The notes under the pieces: model-generated | Seen by the model: only the letters and a program-made list of their open reading frames with translations | The model's database searches: none | Told to the model about the DNA's origin: nothing | Made by a program: the position numbers and the translations under genes | Part shown: positions 13,308 through 21,016 of the stretch, piece by piece | Numbering within the stretch: the stretch's first letter is position 1 | How the letters are laid out: every line of letters starts with the position of its first letter | Assembly (NCBI GenBank): GCA_964439325.1 | Contig: CAYTNW010000001.1 | Location: 303,621 to 367,620 of the forward strand | DNA from: an uncultured Leptospirales bacterium | Lineage (GTDB): Bacteria > Spirochaetota > UBA4802 > UBA5550 | Direction: 5' to 3' | DNA length: 64,000 nucleotides

Positions 13308-13763
13308 TACTTGTAGATCATTATAAAATCAGGATGTCAATAATAACTTTATTCTCAGTGCATTTTTCGGATGTCATTAAAAAATAATACGGATCTTTAT
13401 TTCACAGATGAAAATATTTGAGAATGAAGAAACTGGAGTCTGAAATCATCCGGCATTTGGCCGCCTCCTTCAGTAAATGAGGCACTGCTATTTTTTAAGA
13501 TTAAAATGAAAACCTGTTAACACGATAGCCCACTTTATCAAAGGTCGGCTCATGCGCATCTCCCACAAGGGGACTTCCGAAGGTTGCTTGCGCCGCCGTC
13601 AGAGCAATCAGGATTATTGCCTGCAAACATTCGACAGAATGTCGAAATAAAGTTTGTCTGGTACTGACCTGTACATCGGGTGAAGCCCCGGCAGCGGAAG
13701 GGGGATTTAAAATGGATGGAACACGTCGCTCTTCTTCCGGTATCTTTATATATGAAAATTTAC

Positions 13764-13792
13764 TTTACAACAAAATGGCCGTTTTCGATAAT
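13764..13792 (+). promoter_or_regulatory. Sigma-70-type promoter TTTACA - 17 nt - GATAAT upstream of adk
   Basis: tttaca at 13764-13769, a 17-nt spacer, gataat at 13787-13792. GGAGGA at 13807-13812 precedes ATG 13817. Confidence 0.5.
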
Positions 13793-13816
13793 GTTTAAAA
13801 AATCCTGGAGGATAGG

Positions 13817-14506
13817 ATGAATATTTTAATTTTCGGCCCCAACGGGAGCGGTAAGGGGACTCAGGGGGCAATTGTTCAGAAGATGTTCAGTGTTACTCAT
13901 GTAGAGTCGGGAGGACTGTTCAGGGATAATATTAAAGGCGGAACCGAATTAGGAAAGAAAGCTAAAGAATTTATAGACAGAGGGGACCTCGTTCCTGACA
14001 GCATAACTATTCCGATGATACTCGACAGGCTGAAGAGGGATGACTGTAAAAGCGGCTGGCTGCTGGACGGCTTTCCGAGAAATCCCGAACAGGCTGCCGC
14101 ACTGAAAAAGTCGCTCGACGCTGAATCTATCAGAATTGATTACGTGATAGAGATATCTCTGGACAGAGAGAGTGCAAAAAAGAGGATCATGGGGAGAAGG
14201 CTCTGCGAGAATGACAACAACCATCCGAATAACATATTTATAGATGCGATAAAACCGAAGGAACAGAACGGCGGATTTGTATGCCGGGTCTGCGGAGGAG
14301 CTCTCTCTACACGGGCTGATGATCAGGACGAAAATGCCATTAACAAAAGACATGAGATATACTATGATGGTGTAAACGGTACGGAAGCCGCAGTGGAGTT
14401 TTTTAAAAAGGTTTCGGAAGAGACAGATGGAACGAAATTCATAAAACTTGACGGTACCCCCGGTGTATCCGAGGTCAGCGATATACTTAAAAAACAGCTG
14501 GTTTGA
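13817..14506 (+). CDS. adk: Adenylate kinase (long-lid form)
   Basis: P-loop GPNGSGKGTQ; GWLLDGFPRN; lid RRLCEND...CRVCGG...RADDQ. Confidence 0.95.
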   Translation: MNILIFGPNGSGKGTQGAIVQKMFSVTHVESGGLFRDNIKGGTELGKKAKEFIDRGDLVPDSITIPMILDRLKRDDCKSGWLLDGFPRNPEQAAALKKSLDAESIRIDYVIEISLDRESAKKRIMGRRLCENDNNHPNNIFIDAIKPKEQNGGFVCRVCGGALSTRADDQDENAINKRHEIYYDGVNGTEAAVEFFKKVSEETDGTKFIKLDGTPGVSEVSDILKKQLV

Positions 14507-14531
14507 ATTTAAACATAAATGTGTTTTATAA

Positions 14532-14570
14532 TAAAAGAGAAGCCCGCCTGAAGCGGGCTTCTCTTTTATT
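14532..14570 (+). terminator. Rho-independent terminator after adk
   Basis: Perfect stem aaaagagaagcccgc / gcgggcttctctttt with a 5-nt loop, followed by a T-rich tail. Confidence 0.9.
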
Positions 14571-14703
14571 ATGGTAAGGTTATAAAATGCGGGATATTAA
14601 TGCATGATCCATGCCGGCTAATTATGTATTTTAATTGACTTTGATAAAATAAAGATATACATTTGTATAATAGGCTGAATAATACAAAAAAGGTGTTGAT
14701 ATA

Positions 14704-15087
14704 ATGGAAAATAAATATAAGGTAGCTGTTGCTGCAAGTTTTATCCCTGCTCTGGTAAATATTGCGGGTTCCGTATATGTCTTTATGAATTTCTCGATGT
14801 TTCAGTTTTCAGGATATTTAACAGGCACTATTCTCGGCATTATACTTTCAGTAATGTGGCTGATGCAGGTAAGAAAGGCTTTCGGGTCTCATGCGATAAA
14901 ACTCCTTAAAGTAACCTTTAAAGCCTTTTTTCTGAAATTTCTTGTTTTCCTTATCTTCATCGCCGGCGTTTACTATCTGTATAATTTCAGCAGAACTTTT
15001 TTTGCCGCTTCATTCTTCATATCATTATCGTTAAGTGCAGTGATAGAAATATGGTTTTACGCCTCTCTGAATAAAGCTAACAGCTGA
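14704..15087 (+). CDS. Small integral membrane protein (127 aa, about 4 TM helices)
   Basis: AAGGTG RBS 7 nt upstream. Four hydrophobic segments. First gene of the 14704-19956 operon. Confidence 0.6.
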   Translation: MENKYKVAVAASFIPALVNIAGSVYVFMNFSMFQFSGYLTGTILGIILSVMWLMQVRKAFGSHAIKLLKVTFKAFFLKFLVFLIFIAGVYYLYNFSRTFFAASFFISLSLSAVIEIWFYASLNKANS

Positions 15088-15120
15088 TCGTTTTTAAAAT
15101 AACTACAACAGGTATTATCT

Positions 15121-16725
15121 ATGGATAAAGAAAGTCTTCAGAAGTTAAGCAAAGAGGAGTTGATTCAGATAATTGAAAAAAGCAGCACTAAATATGAATC
15201 AGAATTTGACGGTTCAAAATTCAAACTGCCTGCCTTCAGTTCCATAATTGAATCAGCATACGATATTATATTCGTTATTGATAAAGAACTCCGTATCCAG
15301 TACATGAATAAAGCATGGATCGAAGCGTTCCCGTCACGAGACGCGACACCGGGAAGAAACTACAGGGATTACCTGCATGAGGTTGAACTTGAAAGGGGGA
15401 GTTACGTCGTTGATTCCGTGCTTAATAAAGGACAGGTCTTCAGAAACGAGCTTCTTAAAATATTTGAGAACGGCCAGCCTTACTATTTTGTTACCAACTT
15501 CTCCCCGATAAAGGATGAAAAAGGGGAGATTGTGGCTCTGATAGGTATAATGAGAAATTATACAGAACAGTACCAGATACAGAAAAAGCTGAAAGAGAAC
15601 ACAATCATTCTTGAACAGAAGGTCCAGGAGCAGATCAAGCAGGCTGAGGAATTGAAAAGCCTTCGTGACCTTAATGAGGATATCATAAACCACGCGCCGA
15701 TAGGGATGTTCATGGTGGACCCGTCGGGGATTGTAATCAACGAGAATCCGATGCTGAGCCAGATAATGGCCAGGGAGCCGAACAGCCTTGTGGGAGTAAA
15801 TGTAATAAAGTATAAGGGATTTGTTGATTCCGGATTTACCGGTTTTTTCAACCAGGCTCTGCAGTCGAAGAAGACGATCAGGGCTAGCGAGAAAAAATAC
15901 ACTCCGATTTCCGGGATCAGGGACATTATTGTAAACATAACCTTTGACCCGATAATAAACCGTTCCGGTGCTGTGGAGCGGGTTCTGATAATGATAGAGG
16001 ACGTCACCGAATCGGTAGAGACCAGGAACAAGGTTGCCAGATCTGAAAAGATGAGCGCTCTGGGACTGCTCGCATCCGGTGTTGCTTCGGAGCTGAAGAG
16101 CGGTATCAATAAAATGGTTATGGACCTGAACTTCGTTGACACCAACCTCGATGAATACAGTCCGGCGATTGAGTATGTCGATGCGATGAAAAAGGAGCTG
16201 GAAAGGATAAAGAACATCTCGGAACAGCTGCTGAGCCTTGCGATCATTGATGAGAGAGACAAAGAAAAATGCGAAATAAACAAAGTGATTACGAACCATC
16301 CTGTGGATGTCTTTATAAACAAGATCAGAAATGACGGCCACGAGGTTGACGTGATACTCCCCGAAACAAGTCCCGAGGTGCTTGCAACAAATAACCAGAT
16401 ACAGCAGCTTCTTATCCAGTTTCTTGAGAACGCCGAGGATGCGTTGATGGACGGAGGTAAGATTACACTTAAGGTTGAAACGGTCAAAACAGAGGAGAAC
16501 AACCAGTATGCCGTTATCACGCTGACCGATACCGGGGTTGGTATACCGAAAGAGAATATCAATAAAATCTTTCAGCCGTTTTTTACAACCAAAGGTAAAA
16601 AGGGGACCGGCCTTGGCCTTATGATAGCGACAAATATAATAAACAATATCGGCGGATCGATAGGTGTTAAAACTAATCCGGGCGAAGGGACTTCTATAAA
16701 AGTAGTTCTGCCGCAGGTTAATTAA
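15121..16725 (+). CDS. PAS-domain sensor with histidine-kinase-like core (intact ATPase boxes, no phospho-acceptor His)
   Basis: Coiled-coil plus two PAS-like regions. The DHp helix reads LLASGVASELKSGI, with Ser (tcg 16087-16089) where the His is expected. N-box QFLENAEDAL; G1 DTGVGIP; F/G2 FFTTKGKKGTGLGL. Confidence 0.85.
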   Translation: MDKESLQKLSKEELIQIIEKSSTKYESEFDGSKFKLPAFSSIIESAYDIIFVIDKELRIQYMNKAWIEAFPSRDATPGRNYRDYLHEVELERGSYVVDSVLNKGQVFRNELLKIFENGQPYYFVTNFSPIKDEKGEIVALIGIMRNYTEQYQIQKKLKENTIILEQKVQEQIKQAEELKSLRDLNEDIINHAPIGMFMVDPSGIVINENPMLSQIMAREPNSLVGVNVIKYKGFVDSGFTGFFNQALQSKKTIRASEKKYTPISGIRDIIVNITFDPIINRSGAVERVLIMIEDVTESVETRNKVARSEKMSALGLLASGVASELKSGINKMVMDLNFVDTNLDEYSPAIEYVDAMKKELERIKNISEQLLSLAIIDERDKEKCEINKVITNHPVDVFINKIRNDGHEVDVILPETSPEVLATNNQIQQLLIQFLENAEDALMDGGKITLKVETVKTEENNQYAVITLTDTGVGIPKENINKIFQPFFTTKGKKGTGLGLMIATNIINNIGGSIGVKTNPGEGTSIKVVLPQVN

Positions 16726-16742
16726 ACAGGGAGCATAAGACA

Positions 16743-18218
16743 ATGATAAGTAATCGAGTTGATGTTATAAAGATTTTTCAGAGCGGTGGTTACGATATTA
16801 TAGCTCCTGAAAAGAGAGTGGAGCTGAAGCCTGAGTCTGGTGATAAAAATGATTTAGTAATGCTGAAAAACGACATGTTGAGCCAGTCTCTGGAGTATAA
16901 GGAGAATATAAGGAAAAACGTTCCGTCGGAGGTATCCCCGGTACTGAAAATGATCCCCGAGGGGGAGTATGATATTCCCACTATAGTCGAATACCTGAAC
17001 TGGCACATGAATAATGTCGGTGAGATCGTTATAGGGAGGGGGGATATTATCCGTCAGGCGATCTATGCTGTTTTAACCGGCGAGCATATGCTGCTTTTAA
17101 GCAGGACCGGTATGGCTAAATCCTATCTCGCTCAATCCATATTCAATATCTTTGAGGGGGCAAGGATCTTCTCGTCCCAGGCGAGCAAGGACCAGACGCC
17201 GGACAACTATTTCGGACCGTATAATATCGATGAGTTCAGAAAGGGGAGAATCAGGCATAATATAAAAGGTTCGATCATTGAAGCCAACCTTATCTTCCTT
17301 GATGAGTTTTTTGATGCCAGCGACGTGGTTCTCCGTTCGCTGCTTTCAGTATTGAATGAAAGGAAGTTCATCAACGGTTCCGAGCAGATCGACGCCGCTG
17401 TACACACCGCCGTCGCCACTGCCAACTATATGAGGATGAACGAGGTTACCGAGGCTGTACTCGACAGGTTTACATATAAAGCGATAATACCCGAAGACAA
17501 CAATATATATAATCAGCTTCTTATAGACCAGACCTACACGTTAAGCAGGGGTAAAGCCTCGGAGCCTGACAAAAAGATTTTTTTCAACCAGATACTTTTC
17601 CTGAATGACGTAATCACGAACAAGCACCGCGACATAAAGGTCACTGTTCCGGAATTCATTTATTTCATGAAGAACGTTTTTGTCACCAAGTTTGTAAGCG
17701 AGATGAGGAAGAACGACCAGAACTTCTTCATCAGCCCCAGGAAGCAGGCGAAGCTGGGCGATTTTCTCCGCGCATCCGCTGTTGTCAATAACCGCTTTAC
17801 TGTAAACATGGATGACCTCAGGGACATGCACTTCGCGCTATGTACGCTGAACAGTTATACTTCGATAAAAAATCTTGATAAGTCCGAGAAGGATCTGTAT
17901 CTCGATGTTTACCAGAAAACAATGAACCATTTTAAAGCGACAGGCGCGCTTGCACAGATAGAGTTTCTTCTGGGAGTAAGATCTGTTTTCGAGGAGATAA
18001 AAAATGATCCCGAAAAGAGAGACATGATTCTGAAGAAAAGCACCCTGCTTGACAACCTGAAGAATCTTTTCAGGCTTGTGTTTACAGGTAAACGTAACGA
18101 GGATGATGAAGTTACTCTCGATTCGCTGAAGAAAAGCGTCTTCGATGTAAGCTCTTCGGTTGAAGAGGTAAATGAGCTGAAGAACGGTATTCTGAAGGAA
18201 TACAGAGAACTTACATAG
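16743..18218 (+). CDS. MoxR/RavA-class AAA+ ATPase
   Basis: GEHMLLLSRTGMAKS (Walker A-like, compare GPPGIAKS of RavA). Walker B LIFLDEFFDAS. LNERKF..G; ATAN; LDRF. Lid ISPRKQAKLGDFLRASA. GGGAG RBS upstream. Confidence 0.8.
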   Translation: MISNRVDVIKIFQSGGYDIIAPEKRVELKPESGDKNDLVMLKNDMLSQSLEYKENIRKNVPSEVSPVLKMIPEGEYDIPTIVEYLNWHMNNVGEIVIGRGDIIRQAIYAVLTGEHMLLLSRTGMAKSYLAQSIFNIFEGARIFSSQASKDQTPDNYFGPYNIDEFRKGRIRHNIKGSIIEANLIFLDEFFDASDVVLRSLLSVLNERKFINGSEQIDAAVHTAVATANYMRMNEVTEAVLDRFTYKAIIPEDNNIYNQLLIDQTYTLSRGKASEPDKKIFFNQILFLNDVITNKHRDIKVTVPEFIYFMKNVFVTKFVSEMRKNDQNFFISPRKQAKLGDFLRASAVVNNRFTVNMDDLRDMHFALCTLNSYTSIKNLDKSEKDLYLDVYQKTMNHFKATGALAQIEFLLGVRSVFEEIKNDPEKRDMILKKSTLLDNLKNLFRLVFTGKRNEDDEVTLDSLKKSVFDVSSSVEEVNELKNGILKEYRELT

Positions 18219-18228
18219 GATATTTGGA

Positions 18229-19956
18229 ATGATCTCTCAGAAGAAAGGGGACGATTTTTTCGGATATTGGGATTCGCTCGGATTTTTTGACAATATTCAG
18301 GTGATTCTTCCTCCTCAATTTATGCTGCTGTTTGAAATAGCGCGTACTCTTTTTACCGACAAGAGTTCCGCCGATGCGCTGAACGCGATAGAAAACATCT
18401 CTACCGAGGAGATAATACATATCCCCGACAGGACCGAGAGCATCTCGGTAAACAGGATCGAGCGCCAGTCTCCGCTCAGCGACAGGATGGAGATTGAGAA
18501 TTATAAAAACATAATTGACCTCAAGCGCACTCTGCCGCGCGAACTCGCGATGGATGACGATGTTTTCAACGCCAAGCTGTTTACCAAGACGCTGATGGTC
18601 CAGAAATACTACGAATCCGACAGCGATAACTTCAAGCCGATATCGACAATGAAAAACGAGAAGGGGAGAGAGGCAAATAAGTTCGACCAGCTTTTCTATA
18701 TCCTTCTGGATACCTCGCGGTCGATGGATGTTCACATGAGGGGTTTCTATGCGAAGTGTATCGTGTCTGAGTTCCTGAGACGCAAGCTGGGGACAAATGC
18801 GAAACTCTTCTTCAGAACCTTTGATACGAATGTCGGCGATCTCTATAAAATCGAAAAAAAAGAGGACTATCCCTACCTGATTGAAAAGGTACTCTTCTCA
18901 ACAACAGGCGGAGTAAGCACAAATTTACAGAAAGCGGTATACCAGGCTGTTGACGATATAAACTACACAAAGGACATGGTGAATGCGGAGATACTGGTAG
19001 TCACCGACGGTATCAGCAAGATCGATGTGCATGATATGGTAGACAAGCTCGGGAAGGTAAAACTTCACATCTTAAAAATCGGCGATGACCTTCCGGAACC
19101 CGATTTCTATGATATGAAGTCGGAGCTGTCGAACCAGAAAATAGAATTTGATCCGTCGTCGATAAATATGAGAGACATCAAAAACCGTATCCAGAACCGC
19201 CATGAGGATGATGCCCCGCTGACGCTGGTTGAGCAGAGGATTCACCGGCTGATGCTTGAAAACTCGAACAATATCCTCAAAGACCTGAAAAAAATCTCGA
19301 AAAACTATATAGAAGTCGGCGATATCAAAACCGACAAGCTTTATGATGTATCCTACGAAAACCTTGAGAACCTCTTCCACTGGGTAAAAAAAATCGAATC
19401 TGTGGATCTGAAATACATGAACCTCGAGGAGAAGGAACGCGTTTACAAGCAGGCCTATTTTCTCGGGCAGTACATAAAAATGCTGCATGACCAGTGCTCG
19501 AAAAACAAGGCTGAGCTGAAGAACTTTATCGACCGTATCGCAAAGATAAAGAGCAAACTGATGGAGGATACGGAACTCTTCCTGTTTATTGTAAAAGCGG
19601 GGAAATACCATGACGACAAGAAGAAGCTGAGGCTCGACAAGAAAGAGGCGCGCAAGCTGATGAAGCAGATGTCTCAGATGGATAAAAAGATCACTATCAA
19701 AGACATGAAAAAGGCGCAGCTTACTTTCAGCTTTGAACCTGGCAAGGGTGAATCCGGAAAACTTTTTCTTTTCCTGCTGATAAAACTGTGGCAGCTGATT
19801 GCCGGGATCGCTACTTTCCCGTTTAAAAGAAAAGAAAAAGATGAAGATGATAAAAAAATGACGATAGTCGCTCCGAGCGATGATATAGAAAATATTAAAA
19901 TTGATAAAAATAAAAACAGAAAAAAGAAGAAAGTAAAGAAGGATAAAAAGAGATAA
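18229..19956 (+). CDS. ViaA-like von Willebrand factor A (VWA) protein with C-terminal hydrophobic helix and polylysine tail
   Basis: MIDAS DTSRSM ... STTGGVST ... VVTDG. C-terminus LFLFLLIKLWQLIAGIATFPF, then KNKNRKKKKVKKDKKR. The start is 10 nt after the AAA+ stop. Confidence 0.8.
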   Translation: MISQKKGDDFFGYWDSLGFFDNIQVILPPQFMLLFEIARTLFTDKSSADALNAIENISTEEIIHIPDRTESISVNRIERQSPLSDRMEIENYKNIIDLKRTLPRELAMDDDVFNAKLFTKTLMVQKYYESDSDNFKPISTMKNEKGREANKFDQLFYILLDTSRSMDVHMRGFYAKCIVSEFLRRKLGTNAKLFFRTFDTNVGDLYKIEKKEDYPYLIEKVLFSTTGGVSTNLQKAVYQAVDDINYTKDMVNAEILVVTDGISKIDVHDMVDKLGKVKLHILKIGDDLPEPDFYDMKSELSNQKIEFDPSSINMRDIKNRIQNRHEDDAPLTLVEQRIHRLMLENSNNILKDLKKISKNYIEVGDIKTDKLYDVSYENLENLFHWVKKIESVDLKYMNLEEKERVYKQAYFLGQYIKMLHDQCSKNKAELKNFIDRIAKIKSKLMEDTELFLFIVKAGKYHDDKKKLRLDKKEARKLMKQMSQMDKKITIKDMKKAQLTFSFEPGKGESGKLFLFLLIKLWQLIAGIATFPFKRKEKDEDDKKMTIVAPSDDIENIKIDKNKNRKKKKVKKDKKR

Positions 19957-20000: not shown

Positions 20001-20040
20001 AAAAAAGGCTGACATTTTATGTCAGCCTTTCTGTTTTTTT
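20001..20040. terminator. Bidirectional hairpin terminator between convergent genes
   Basis: aaaggctgac / gtcagccttt is a perfect 10-bp stem flanked by an A-run (5') and a T-run (3'). Confidence 0.85.
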
Positions 20041-21016
20041 ACCCGACCTTCCCTTTGTACCAGTCAACGGTATCGGAAAGGATGTCGATATTGTCCTTTT
20101 TCGGCGACCAGCCTGTGATCGTTTTCAGCCTGTGGCTGTCGAGATACACTGTATGGAAAATGAAGAGAAAGTGTTCTTTTGTGAAGTAATTGACATCTGA
20201 GAATTTTGACAGAATGGCATAGTAAAACGCCTTCAGTTTTGTAACATGTTTTATTGCGAAGTCGAGCTTTTTCTTTTCCTTAAGTTTCAGGATCTGCTCC
20301 ATCTGTGTGGGCACATTGTCCGAGCCGACATTGAAAGAGAAACCGTAGGCCTTTTCTCCTGCCTTGTATACTTTATAGAACGCCTCCGCTGCGTCTTCCG
20401 GAGATAAAAGCTGGAACCTTGAATCGCCGTCACCGGATATAAACATCACGTTGTCGTTGCCGAGACCCATTGCCATGTAAAGCGTAATCAGTATTGAGGA
20501 ATTTTTTACCTCGGGACCCGCGATAACAGAGGGTCGTATTACTGAAAGATTTATCTCATGTTTTTTAGCGAAATCCTCACAGAGAATTTCTGCCTTCAGC
20601 TTGTCTTTTCCATAGGCGGTGTAAGGTCTTTTTCTGTCATCTTCCTTTAACGGGAAGGCATCGTTTTTACCGTAGACTGCGTAAGTGGAAAGGAATATTA
20701 ACCTTTTAATCTTGAACTTTTTTACAGAGGTCAGCAGGTTTTTTGTTCCATTAATGTTGATTTTTTTCATTTTTCTGCGGCCGGTTTTCTGGGCCCTGTT
20801 TTTGTCCATAAGATGTATTACTGTATCAACCCCTTTACACGCCAGGTTGAGTTTTTTCATTGTAAAAAGATCCCCCTGAATGAATTCGACTCCGTCAGGG
20901 ATTGTTTTAGGTTTGTACTGATCATAGCATCTTATTTTTTCACCGTTCCGGATGAATTTTTCAACCAGAGCATTACCCAGCAGGGAGTTTGAACCGGTGA
21001 CGAGTATCATAAGCAT
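20039..21016 (-). CDS. NAD-dependent epimerase/dehydratase (extended SDR family)
   Basis: N-terminal VTGSNSLLG Rossmann motif and catalytic YxxxK (YGKDK). Confidence 0.85.
   Translation of the reverse strand: MLMILVTGSNSLLGNALVEKFIRNGEKIRCYDQYKPKTIPDGVEFIQGDLFTMKKLNLACKGVDTVIHLMDKNRAQKTGRRKMKKININGTKNLLTSVKKFKIKRLIFLSTYAVYGKNDAFPLKEDDRKRPYTAYGKDKLKAEILCEDFAKKHEINLSVIRPSVIAGPEVKNSSILITLYMAMGLGNDNVMFISGDGDSRFQLLSPEDAAEAFYKVYKAGEKAYGFSFNVGSDNVPTQMEQILKLKEKKKLDFAIKHVTKLKAFYYAILSKFSDVNYFTKEHFLFIFHTVYLDSHRLKTITGWSPKKDNIDILSDTVDWYKGKVG

Follow-up and report, generated by a model that had tools for sequence, protein, structure and literature searches.

A conserved spirochaete gene unit joins a MoxR-VWA pair to a predicted PAS pseudo-histidine kinase and a putative AtpI-like membrane protein

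Pairs of a MoxR-type AAA+ ATPase and a von Willebrand factor A (VWA) protein occur widely. Clients have been identified for few of them, and no pair is known to work under a dedicated sensor. In CbbQ-CbbO, NorQ-NorD and CoxD-CoxE, which belong to a different MoxR subfamily (CGN) from the one treated here, an AAA+ hexamer acts with a VWA adaptor carrying a metal ion-dependent adhesion site (MIDAS) on one client complex. The Bat clusters combine an MRP-type MoxR (AAA_3) with a DUF58 protein, the N-terminally anchored VWA proteins BatA/BatB and TPR partners. The Bat operon and Borrelia BB0170-BB0176 are known spirochaete MoxR-VWA clusters, with MoxR and VWA proteins at the membrane (PMC3557215, PMC5700661), and RavA-ViaA is associated with the membrane and with respiratory complexes (PMC9489729, PMC3893208, PMC10585395). 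Ternary systems of MoxR, vWA and a beta-propeller, VMAP or iSTAND component have also been described, with the effectors that accompany vWA lacking histidine kinase domains (Kaur et al. 2020). We analysed a 64,000-nucleotide stretch of DNA (the window) from an uncultured Leptospirales bacterium (contig CAYTNW010000001.1), in which four same-strand genes encode a small four-transmembrane (4-TM) protein (gene 1), a PAS protein with a histidine kinase-like (HK-like) core (gene 2), a MoxR ATPase (gene 3) and a VWA protein (gene 4). The MoxR-VWA pair resembles known chaperone pairs, but we found no paper that describes its combination with a PAS pseudo-kinase and an AtpI-like protein.

The pair in the window was compared with these systems. 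It resembles CbbQO, NorQD and CoxDE in its AAA+ and MIDAS VWA components, and NorQD was among the Foldseek structural matches of gene 4; in those systems, however, the clients (Rubisco, nitric oxide reductase and carbon monoxide dehydrogenase) are encoded next door and there is no sensor protein. Like the Bat clusters, it occurs in spirochaetes and couples MoxR with a candidate membrane VWA protein, but AAA_3 scored only 20.4 bits on gene 3 (cutoff 27) and no DUF58 or Bat-like genes were present in the neighbourhood. The systems of Kaur et al. 2020 likewise have a bpMoxR-type ATPase and a vWA protein, whereas here no third component or effector was found, the setting is the core genome, and an HK-like protein is the partner. 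The first-pass annotation, made from the letters alone, had known of no described version with a PAS sensor or pseudo-kinase and a small membrane protein. This agrees with the literature, covered in part of the journals, in which we found neither a MoxR-VWA pair with a PAS pseudo-kinase nor a MoxR protein linked to AtpI or atp operons.

Co-conservation of the genes, which had been proposed as a check at first pass, was then counted. A scan of one genome per species gave 73 loci. Metagenomes were also scanned; a single-protein query (P0140) matched nothing, and an alignment query succeeded. Co-occurrence was scored by profile searches over the evaluable loci (57 genome and 19 metagenome loci), and inspection recovered small 4-TM open reading frames (ORFs) that tblastn had not picked up. 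The triad of PAS-HK-like protein, MoxR and VWA was complete in 57/57 genome loci and 19/19 metagenome loci, and all four genes were found in 55/57 and 19/19, respectively. The median gaps between the genes were about 20, 17 and 11 nt across orthologues. Most gaps were shorter than about 50 nt, or the genes overlapped, in species whose VWA proteins share 37-90% identity. Relatives of the VWA protein numbered 289 at E<=1e-3, and those with a named source came nearly all from uncultured Spirochaetota or 'Leptospirales' metagenome-assembled genomes (MAGs). The flanks were also partly conserved: adk lay upstream in 42/63 loci (same strand in 39/63, opposite strand in 3 more), and a convergent gene for a short-chain dehydrogenase/reductase (SDR) epimerase lay downstream in 60/66. 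Because the flanks are conserved, the G+C content (0.43 for the unit, 0.44 for the window) is like that of the surroundings, and PADLOC gave nothing significant for any of the four proteins, the unit is a core-genome locus and not a conflict island.

Gene 2 encodes a predicted cytoplasmic protein of two PAS domains followed by a DHp-like hairpin and an HATPase_c (CA) domain. Its PAS2-DHp-CA region resembles kinases of the AtoS, ZraS and NtrB type. No HisKA match was obtained in the Pfam scan, and when the protein was aligned with ZraS and ThkA, the H-box 'gvaHEirnp' was paired with 'gvaSElksg' of gene 2, which places Ser323 at the phospho-acceptor position. Among 63 orthologues the residue at position 323 was Y28/S26/L3/F2/T2/V1/R1, and His was never found; the Glu that follows was kept. 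Replacements occurred inside the sub-clades as well: Tyr by Phe in the Tyr sub-clade (L036, L066), and Ser by Leu among the Ser-bearing sequences (L048, L024, L063). The ATP-site residues, by contrast with the lost His, were invariant (N437, D470xGxG474, F487, T490-K-G492 and G497xG499, of the N, G1, F and G2 boxes), and the CA block was the best-conserved part of the protein, although the acidic residue preceding the N-box Asn varied (E30/S16/A13). Since position 323 is never His while the ATP-binding boxes are invariant, gene 2 encodes a predicted pseudo-histidine kinase that almost certainly still binds ATP, and the His-less kinase core proposed at first pass was borne out. His328, five residues past position 323, was considered as an alternative phospho-acceptor and rejected: close relatives have it, but the window protein has Gly and the Tyr sub-clade Pro at this place. 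The PAS domains showed no signature of LOV, haem or flavin binding, and their ligand is not assignable from motifs. Neither the operon nor the flanks of the syntenic loci held a Response_reg gene; an unlinked partner is possible.

Two described proteins offer models for such a molecule. NifL, built of PAS-PAS, H-like and GHKL parts, performs no phosphotransfer and controls its AAA+ partner NifA by nucleotide- and redox-dependent binding. DivL, a pseudo-histidine kinase of Caulobacter with Tyr in place of His, is an allosteric scaffold. Gene 2 shares the domain order of NifL, but its partner here is MoxR and not a sigma-54 activator, it has no recognisable flavin-binding features, and the NifL model TIGR02938 matched in the CA region only (96.7 bits against a 242-bit cutoff, 1e-27). 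With DivL it shares the multi-PAS HK-like build and the replaced H-box His, Tyr being the commonest residue here too (28/63); there is, however, no evidence of orthology, and the partners are CckA and DivK for DivL as against MoxR and VWA.

Gene 3 has a variable N-terminal stretch of about 75 aa, an AAA+ core with lid (aa ~88-366) and a helical C-terminal region. In Pfam it matched bpMoxR (104.6 bits, cutoff 27), AAA_5 (58.6 bits) and AAA_lid_8 (28.9 bits, cutoff 22.8), the models that E. coli RavA also matches, and RavA was its best PDB sequence match (3e-19, 27% identity over 266 aa). The RavA/MoxR hallmarks noted in the sequence at first pass were thus upheld. The Walker A motif is deviant, with Ser for the first Gly and Ala for the second; the Ala is also found in GPPGIAKS of RavA. 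As regards the wider label "RavA-like/ViaA-like", the AAA+ module (same MoxR clade, bpMoxR + AAA_5 + AAA_lid_8) and the probable type of the VWA protein stood. So did the gene order, with a VWA partner of putative CoxE/ViaA type encoded immediately downstream, whose VWA domain is preceded by an 'LP.ELA' motif like that of ViaA. Other parts of the label did not: gene 3 scored 79.3 bits on the RavA equivalog NF010054 (cutoff 681 bits), and it has the P-loop SRTGMAKS but neither the LARA (PF20265) nor the RavA C-terminal domain (PF12592, RavA_C), both of which E. coli RavA has. Whereas ViaA carries its VWA domain at the C-terminus, here it lies in the middle of the protein and is followed by a helical extension of ~280 aa. 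Unlike the unit studied here, ravA-viaA has no PAS pseudo-kinase and AtpI-like partners.

Gene 4 encodes, in order, an N-terminal helical region (FF..GFF..LP..FEIAR), the motif LPRELA, the central VWA domain, a helical C-terminal domain of ~280 aa and a terminal hydrophobic or amphipathic helix. The window protein itself had no Pfam match and no PDB sequence match, and its orthologues matched VWA_2 (16/22) and VWA_CoxE (8/22, best 4e-5). AlphaFold2 (AF2) models were built from 22 sequences and from 80 sequences, giving a predicted local distance difference test (pLDDT) score of 59.8 and 73.7. Foldseek searches with the two models returned 110 and 144 PDB matches at E<=1e-3; the best 50 of 110 and the best 50 of 144 were all VWA/I-domains (TM-score 0.6-0.66, root-mean-square deviation ~3 Å), with the matches confined to the VWA core and none for the N- and C-terminal domains. 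The five MIDAS residues (D161-x-S163-x-S165, T231 and D260) were invariant in 80 homologues from three lineages. On account of the orthologue matches, the fold of the models and the invariant MIDAS, gene 4 is identified as a true VWA protein with a complete MIDAS, which accords with the complete-looking site recorded earlier. An hhalign comparison of the family with E. coli ViaA (prob 1.5%) was uninformative, the template being a single sequence, but the LPxELA motif was aligned. The C-terminal helix is of transmembrane grade in the window protein (Kyte-Doolittle hydropathy 2.05), as against a median of 1.52 in 67 orthologues, and takes a basic, amphipathic form in the distant homologues; because of this, membrane binding through the helix is plausible, and an anchor only putative. 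Of the membrane tether and polylysine tail described at first pass, the helix therefore holds for the window protein and weakens in its orthologues, and the tail is not conserved: the 21 orthologues aligned with the window protein are mostly ~550-560 aa long and end before it.

The 4-TM character of gene 1, also noted at first pass, was retained, and the family could be narrowed. The NCBIfam model Cg1360_fam ("ATP-synthase-associated protein") matched 24/25 orthologues (best 9.3e-8, below the 40-bit cutoff), and Pfam ATP-synt_I matched 9/25 (best 1.3e-4, below the curated cutoff). When the family was compared by hhalign with four AtpI proteins from real atp operons, it was aligned over 105 columns (prob 60%, E 8.7e-5) with the helix-4 Glu in register. 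In a search of the gene 1 profile against 7882 six-frame ORFs from all loci, only three matches lay beyond the orthologues, and all three were AtpI of atp operons. Within the family G37, G41, F104 and E115 are invariant, E115 being the Glu of helix 4 in the motif IEVWF. The family is accordingly predicted to consist of AtpI/Cg1360-like, ATP-synthase-associated membrane proteins. It resembles AtpI/UncI and Cg1360 in length (~130 aa), in its four TM helices, in profile and in the conserved last-helix Glu. It differs in that gene 1 heads a MoxR-VWA operon and not an atp operon, scores below cutoffs, and shows no detectable similarity to E. coli AtpI. No relevant paper was found in the literature on Cg1360.

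An exhaustive profile search with the VWA family recovered 569 representatives, comprising the spirochaete tier and then full-length homologues of ~500-570 aa from Ignavibacteria, Kapabacteria, Chlorobi-like bacteria and unnamed MAGs. The distant loci carry the bpMoxR-VWA pair without a PAS-HK-like or AtpI-like gene; therefore both genes would be additions specific to the spirochaete clade. Some of the distant pairs stand at the head of ATP synthase genes. In L137 and L150 the order, all co-oriented, is bpMoxR-VWA-atpZ (PF09527)-atpI-atpB-atpE-atpF-atpH-atpA; on short contigs that show the start of this order, L133 has MoxR-VWA-atpZ-atpI-atpB up to the contig end, and L132 VWA-atpZ-atpI-atpB-atpE. 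With the VWA protein of L150, those of L132, L133 and L137 share 59-60% identity. L088 belongs to a different VWA sub-family; there the VWA gene and atpE-atpB-atpI-atpZ are transcribed away from each other, with 192 nt between. The window MoxR is closer to the MoxR of L137 (33% over 409 aa, with the common P-loop SRTGxAKS, SRTGAAKS in L137) than to RavA, and the two VWA proteins are 28% identical over 410 aa. Counting the spirochaete AtpI-like gene, three separate arrangements thus appear to link the head of the Fo genes with this family of MoxR-VWA pairs. For two further homologues the context was limited: P0269 had no adjacent MoxR or atp genes, and P0147 lay on a contig of 1.7 kb only. ORF calls in the high-GC distant loci L090, L093 and L129 were too noisy to interpret.

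These observations suggest that the four genes form one operon for a membrane-associated, chaperone-like AAA+ machine that is gated by a sensor and may have the Fo sector of ATP synthase as its client, a composite reading which we place a little below an even chance. Powered by ATP, the MoxR hexamer would pull the VWA adaptor or change its position, and the adaptor's MIDAS would grip an acidic residue of the client, by analogy with CbbQO, NorQD and RavA-ViaA. The C-terminal helix of the VWA protein and the AtpI-like protein would locate this activity to the cytoplasmic membrane. Gene 2, as a pseudo-kinase that performs no His-Asp phosphotransfer, would serve as a stoichiometric regulator, relaying a ligand or redox state (PAS) and ATP/ADP occupancy (CA) to its AAA+ partner by direct contact, perhaps as NifL acts on NifA and DivL on CckA. 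Since the His-Asp chemistry is absent, the PAS domains and ATP pocket are kept and no response regulator is near, regulation of the AAA+ neighbour by binding is most likely. The client, put forward on account of the AtpI-like gene 1 and of the position of the pair's closest homologues outside the spirochaetes, directly beside atpZ-atpI-atpB, is the weakest step; the Fo sector of F-type ATP synthase, or its assembly intermediates, is the best-supported candidate, at roughly one chance in three. The AAA+/VWA remodelling or signalling machine at the membrane that had been imagined at first pass stands as a co-conserved unit; its function is still an inference, for which the adjacency to atp genes in other lineages points to something more specific.

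Several points weigh against this reading. Neither the 64-kb window nor any of the Spirochaetota loci contains atp genes, and in Ignavibacteria, Kapabacteria and others, most of the distant homologous pairs stand apart from atp genes. The AtpI assignment depends on profile matches below curated cutoffs: the window gene 1 protein alone reached a best profile score of just E 0.054, and an hhalign comparison with E. coli AtpI was not significant (prob 0.1%), although this single-sequence template is uninformative. Gene 1 is absent in three spirochaete species (L067, L068 and L069). The ATPase competence of gene 3 is assumed, its Walker A being deviant. Direct contact between the pseudo-kinase and MoxR is proposed by analogy, and the function of the operon is deduced from the sequences and gene neighbourhoods of uncultured organisms.

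The same machine might instead serve another client, such as respiratory complexes (complex I, fumarate reductase), membrane lipids, or an envelope process like that of the neighbouring sugar-nucleotide enzymes, with gene 1 as a mere anchor. Of the relatives that have been solved and characterised, RavA is the nearest, and both RavA and ViaA bind to the inner membrane and to Nuo and Frd; the epimerase gene that converges on the operon in most loci, the UDP-sugar dehydrogenase gene after the Ignavibacteria homologues and the scarcity of atp linkage among distant homologues would also suit such a client. However, gene 1 matches ATP-synthase-associated families specifically, two independent atp-adjacent arrangements occur in other lineages, and the LARA domain, by which RavA docks to LdcI, is missing. 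Another client is, in our judgement, unlikely, though a serious contender. That the genes are neighbours by inherited synteny only, with unrelated functions (gene 2 being, for example, an orphan sensor for an unlinked pathway), has in its favour that the adk, epimerase and signal peptidase flanks are syntenic too, which makes gene order within one lineage weak evidence. Yet the gaps within the unit stay short or overlapping over the whole range of VWA identity while the flanks vary, normal two-component chemistry has been lost in the kinase clade-wide, and MoxR-VWA pairing is a known functional unit; we regard mere synteny as very unlikely.

The kinase-like protein might also be active, phosphorylating its own Ser/Tyr323 or a Ser/Thr/Tyr of the MoxR or VWA protein, so that phosphorylation would control the AAA+ switch. 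The GHKL serine kinases SpoIIAB and PDK phosphorylate in this way, and Tyr phosphorylation was originally reported for DivL. In favour stand the invariant ATP-binding boxes in the most conserved region and the hydroxyl residue (Y/S/T) that 56/63 orthologues have where the His would be, with the next Glu kept. But Phe, Leu, Val and Arg replace the residue, the first two within sub-clades, so that the hydroxyl at position 323 is dispensable, and the acidic residue before the N-box Asn is not conserved; an active kinase is therefore held to be decidedly unlikely. Least credible of all is that the unit belongs to the NTP-dependent MoxR-vWA systems of conflict or defence, with the PAS protein sensing an invader. 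MoxR-vWA cores are known in such systems and the best Pfam match of gene 3, bpMoxR, is a model built from them; E. coli RavA scores higher on this model (191 bits), however, so the match marks the RavA clade and not conflict systems. No beta-propeller, VMAP, iSTAND or effector domain was found in the proteins or in the syntenic neighbourhoods scanned, PADLOC was negative, HK domains are absent from such systems (Kaur et al. 2020), and the locus is single-copy, has the G+C content of its surroundings, and keeps its core-genome flanks both in the metagenome loci and across the 73 genome loci at species level.

The four ORFs are separated by 33, 17 and 10 nt, the same coordinates and gaps being obtained from the ORF list as had been given at first pass, and a purine-rich stretch precedes each of the four starts. 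Sigma-70-like hexamers, taken as putative promoters, stand 20-40 nt 5' of gene 1. The first-pass annotation had placed a strong terminator upstream (14532-14570) and a bidirectional one downstream (20001-20040), and folding energies and z-scores support both: the upstream hairpin would be a terminator-like border of the unit, and the downstream one separates the VWA gene from the epimerase gene that converges on it. Scans of the whole window for tRNA genes, and for Rfam families at gathering threshold, were empty. The features are collected in the table.

Table. Coordinates of the unit, its protein features and its surroundings (positions in the window)
Feature	Position	Strand	Basis or remark
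adk (adenylate kinase), just 5' of the operon	13817-14506		NCBIfam PRK14529 above cutoff
Upstream hairpin after adk, terminator-like	14528-14572	+	perfect 20-bp stem, A/T-rich flanks, -31.7 kcal/mol, z = -9.7
Promoter matches, sigma-70-like, two overlapping	14635-14683	+	TTGACT-17-TACATT; TATACA-16-AATAAT; consensus matches only
Gene 1, putative AtpI/Cg1360-family 4-TM protein, 127 aa	14704-15087	+	family profile matches
Gene 2, predicted cytoplasmic PAS-PAS pseudo-histidine kinase, 534 aa	15121-16725	+	domain matches, alignments
PAS domain 1, aa 39-151	15235-15573	+	PAS_4 / PAS_9 / PAS matches
PAS domain 2, aa ~184-298	15670-16014	+	two PAS stretches; ThkA 3a0r alignment from aa 184
DHp-like helical hairpin, aa ~303-375	16027-16245	+	phospho-acceptor position = Ser323, codon 16087-16089
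HATPase_c (CA) domain, aa 425-532	16393-16716	+	80 bits
Gene 3, RavA-type MoxR AAA+ ATPase, 491 aa	16743-18218	+	Pfam and PDB sequence matches
Deviant Walker A SRTGMAKS, aa 120-127	17100-17123	+	no variation among 69 orthologues except Thr as last residue in three
Walker B Asp187-Glu188 (LIFLDE)	17301-17306	+	conserved
Gene 4, predicted VWA adaptor, 575 aa	18229-19956	+	orthologue Pfam, Foldseek, MIDAS conservation
VWA domain, aa ~154-290	18688-19098	+	MIDAS D161/S163/S165 (18709-18723), T231, D260
C-terminal hydrophobic/amphipathic helix, aa 509-536	19753-19836	+	candidate membrane-binding element
Lys-rich tail of VWA protein (KNKNRKKKKVKKDKKR)	19906-19953	+	extension specific to window sequence
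Bidirectional terminator-like hairpin	20004-20040	.	12-bp stem flanked by A-/T-runs, hairpin at 20004-20030 plus T-run, -16.9 kcal/mol, z = -6.1
SDR "NAD-dependent epimerase/dehydratase" gene	20039-21016	-	convergent on VWA gene

Further observations were made on the neighbourhoods. In the window, a strong hairpin lies between adk and the operon, and adk, the AtpI-like gene, the ATP-binding pseudo-kinase and the AAA+ protein share an adenylate or energy theme, which may be coincidence. In L003 and L005 a gene for a PaaK-like AMP-binding ligase lies between an ACT-domain gene and adk; the corresponding place in the window (13308-13816) is ~500 nt of non-coding DNA, and tblastn detected no copy of the ligase in the 64 kb. 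Of the species without gene 1, L067 (5274-6362) and L068 (5201-6286) have a shortened single-PAS sensor of ~362 aa (PAS2-DHp-CA only), with an unrelated ORF of ~220 aa upstream in the place of gene 1, and L069 (3589-6555) has an extra PAS protein upstream. The P-loop SRTG(M/A)AKS, common to the window protein and the atp-linked MoxR of the distant lineage (L137, 5193-6500), is a possible signature of this MoxR sub-family.

Around the distant pairs, a convergent UDP-glucose/GDP-mannose dehydrogenase gene follows the homologous VWA gene in Ignavibacteria and Kapabacteria, where function and synteny are not distinguishable. In another lineage (L086 547-4377; L087 1-2477; L140, L142-L144), MoxR-VWA has, 1-3 kb upstream and in loose linkage, PAS-rich sigma-54 signalling genes. 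Some loci encode a PAS/sigma-54 activator of 1276 aa there, others a dCache-PAS histidine kinase together with a response regulator of the sigma-54 type. A protein of ~1250 aa with VWA and a WD40 beta-propeller is encoded a few genes upstream in the Ignavibacteria-type loci L082-L084 (1-1953). Large TPR/YfiO-like proteins (~1000 aa) are encoded near the Ignavibacteria-type MoxR-VWA genes, and a similar TPR gene adjoins the atp-linked pairs (L137/L150, upstream).

In at least 57 species-level genomes, then, a MoxR-VWA pair is joined to a His-less PAS kinase, with an AtpI-like gene in 55/57. This raises the idea that pseudo-histidine kinases may be allosteric governors of AAA+ remodellers beyond NifL-NifA. 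It also raises the idea that a MoxR family may service ATP synthase, and that AtpI, a conserved atp-operon product whose role is debated, may be the membrane receptor of the machine. Taken further, the SRTGxAKS MoxR-VWA family might be an unrecognised factor for the assembly or activity control of F-type ATP synthase that acts via AtpI at Fo, and the spirochaete clade might have captured an atpI-like gene together with a PAS pseudo-kinase that reads redox state or adenylate energy charge. We hold this extension to be less likely than not. If it is true, remodelling of ATP synthase would be gated by the energy state of the cell, and AtpI and a MoxR family would both gain a concrete function.

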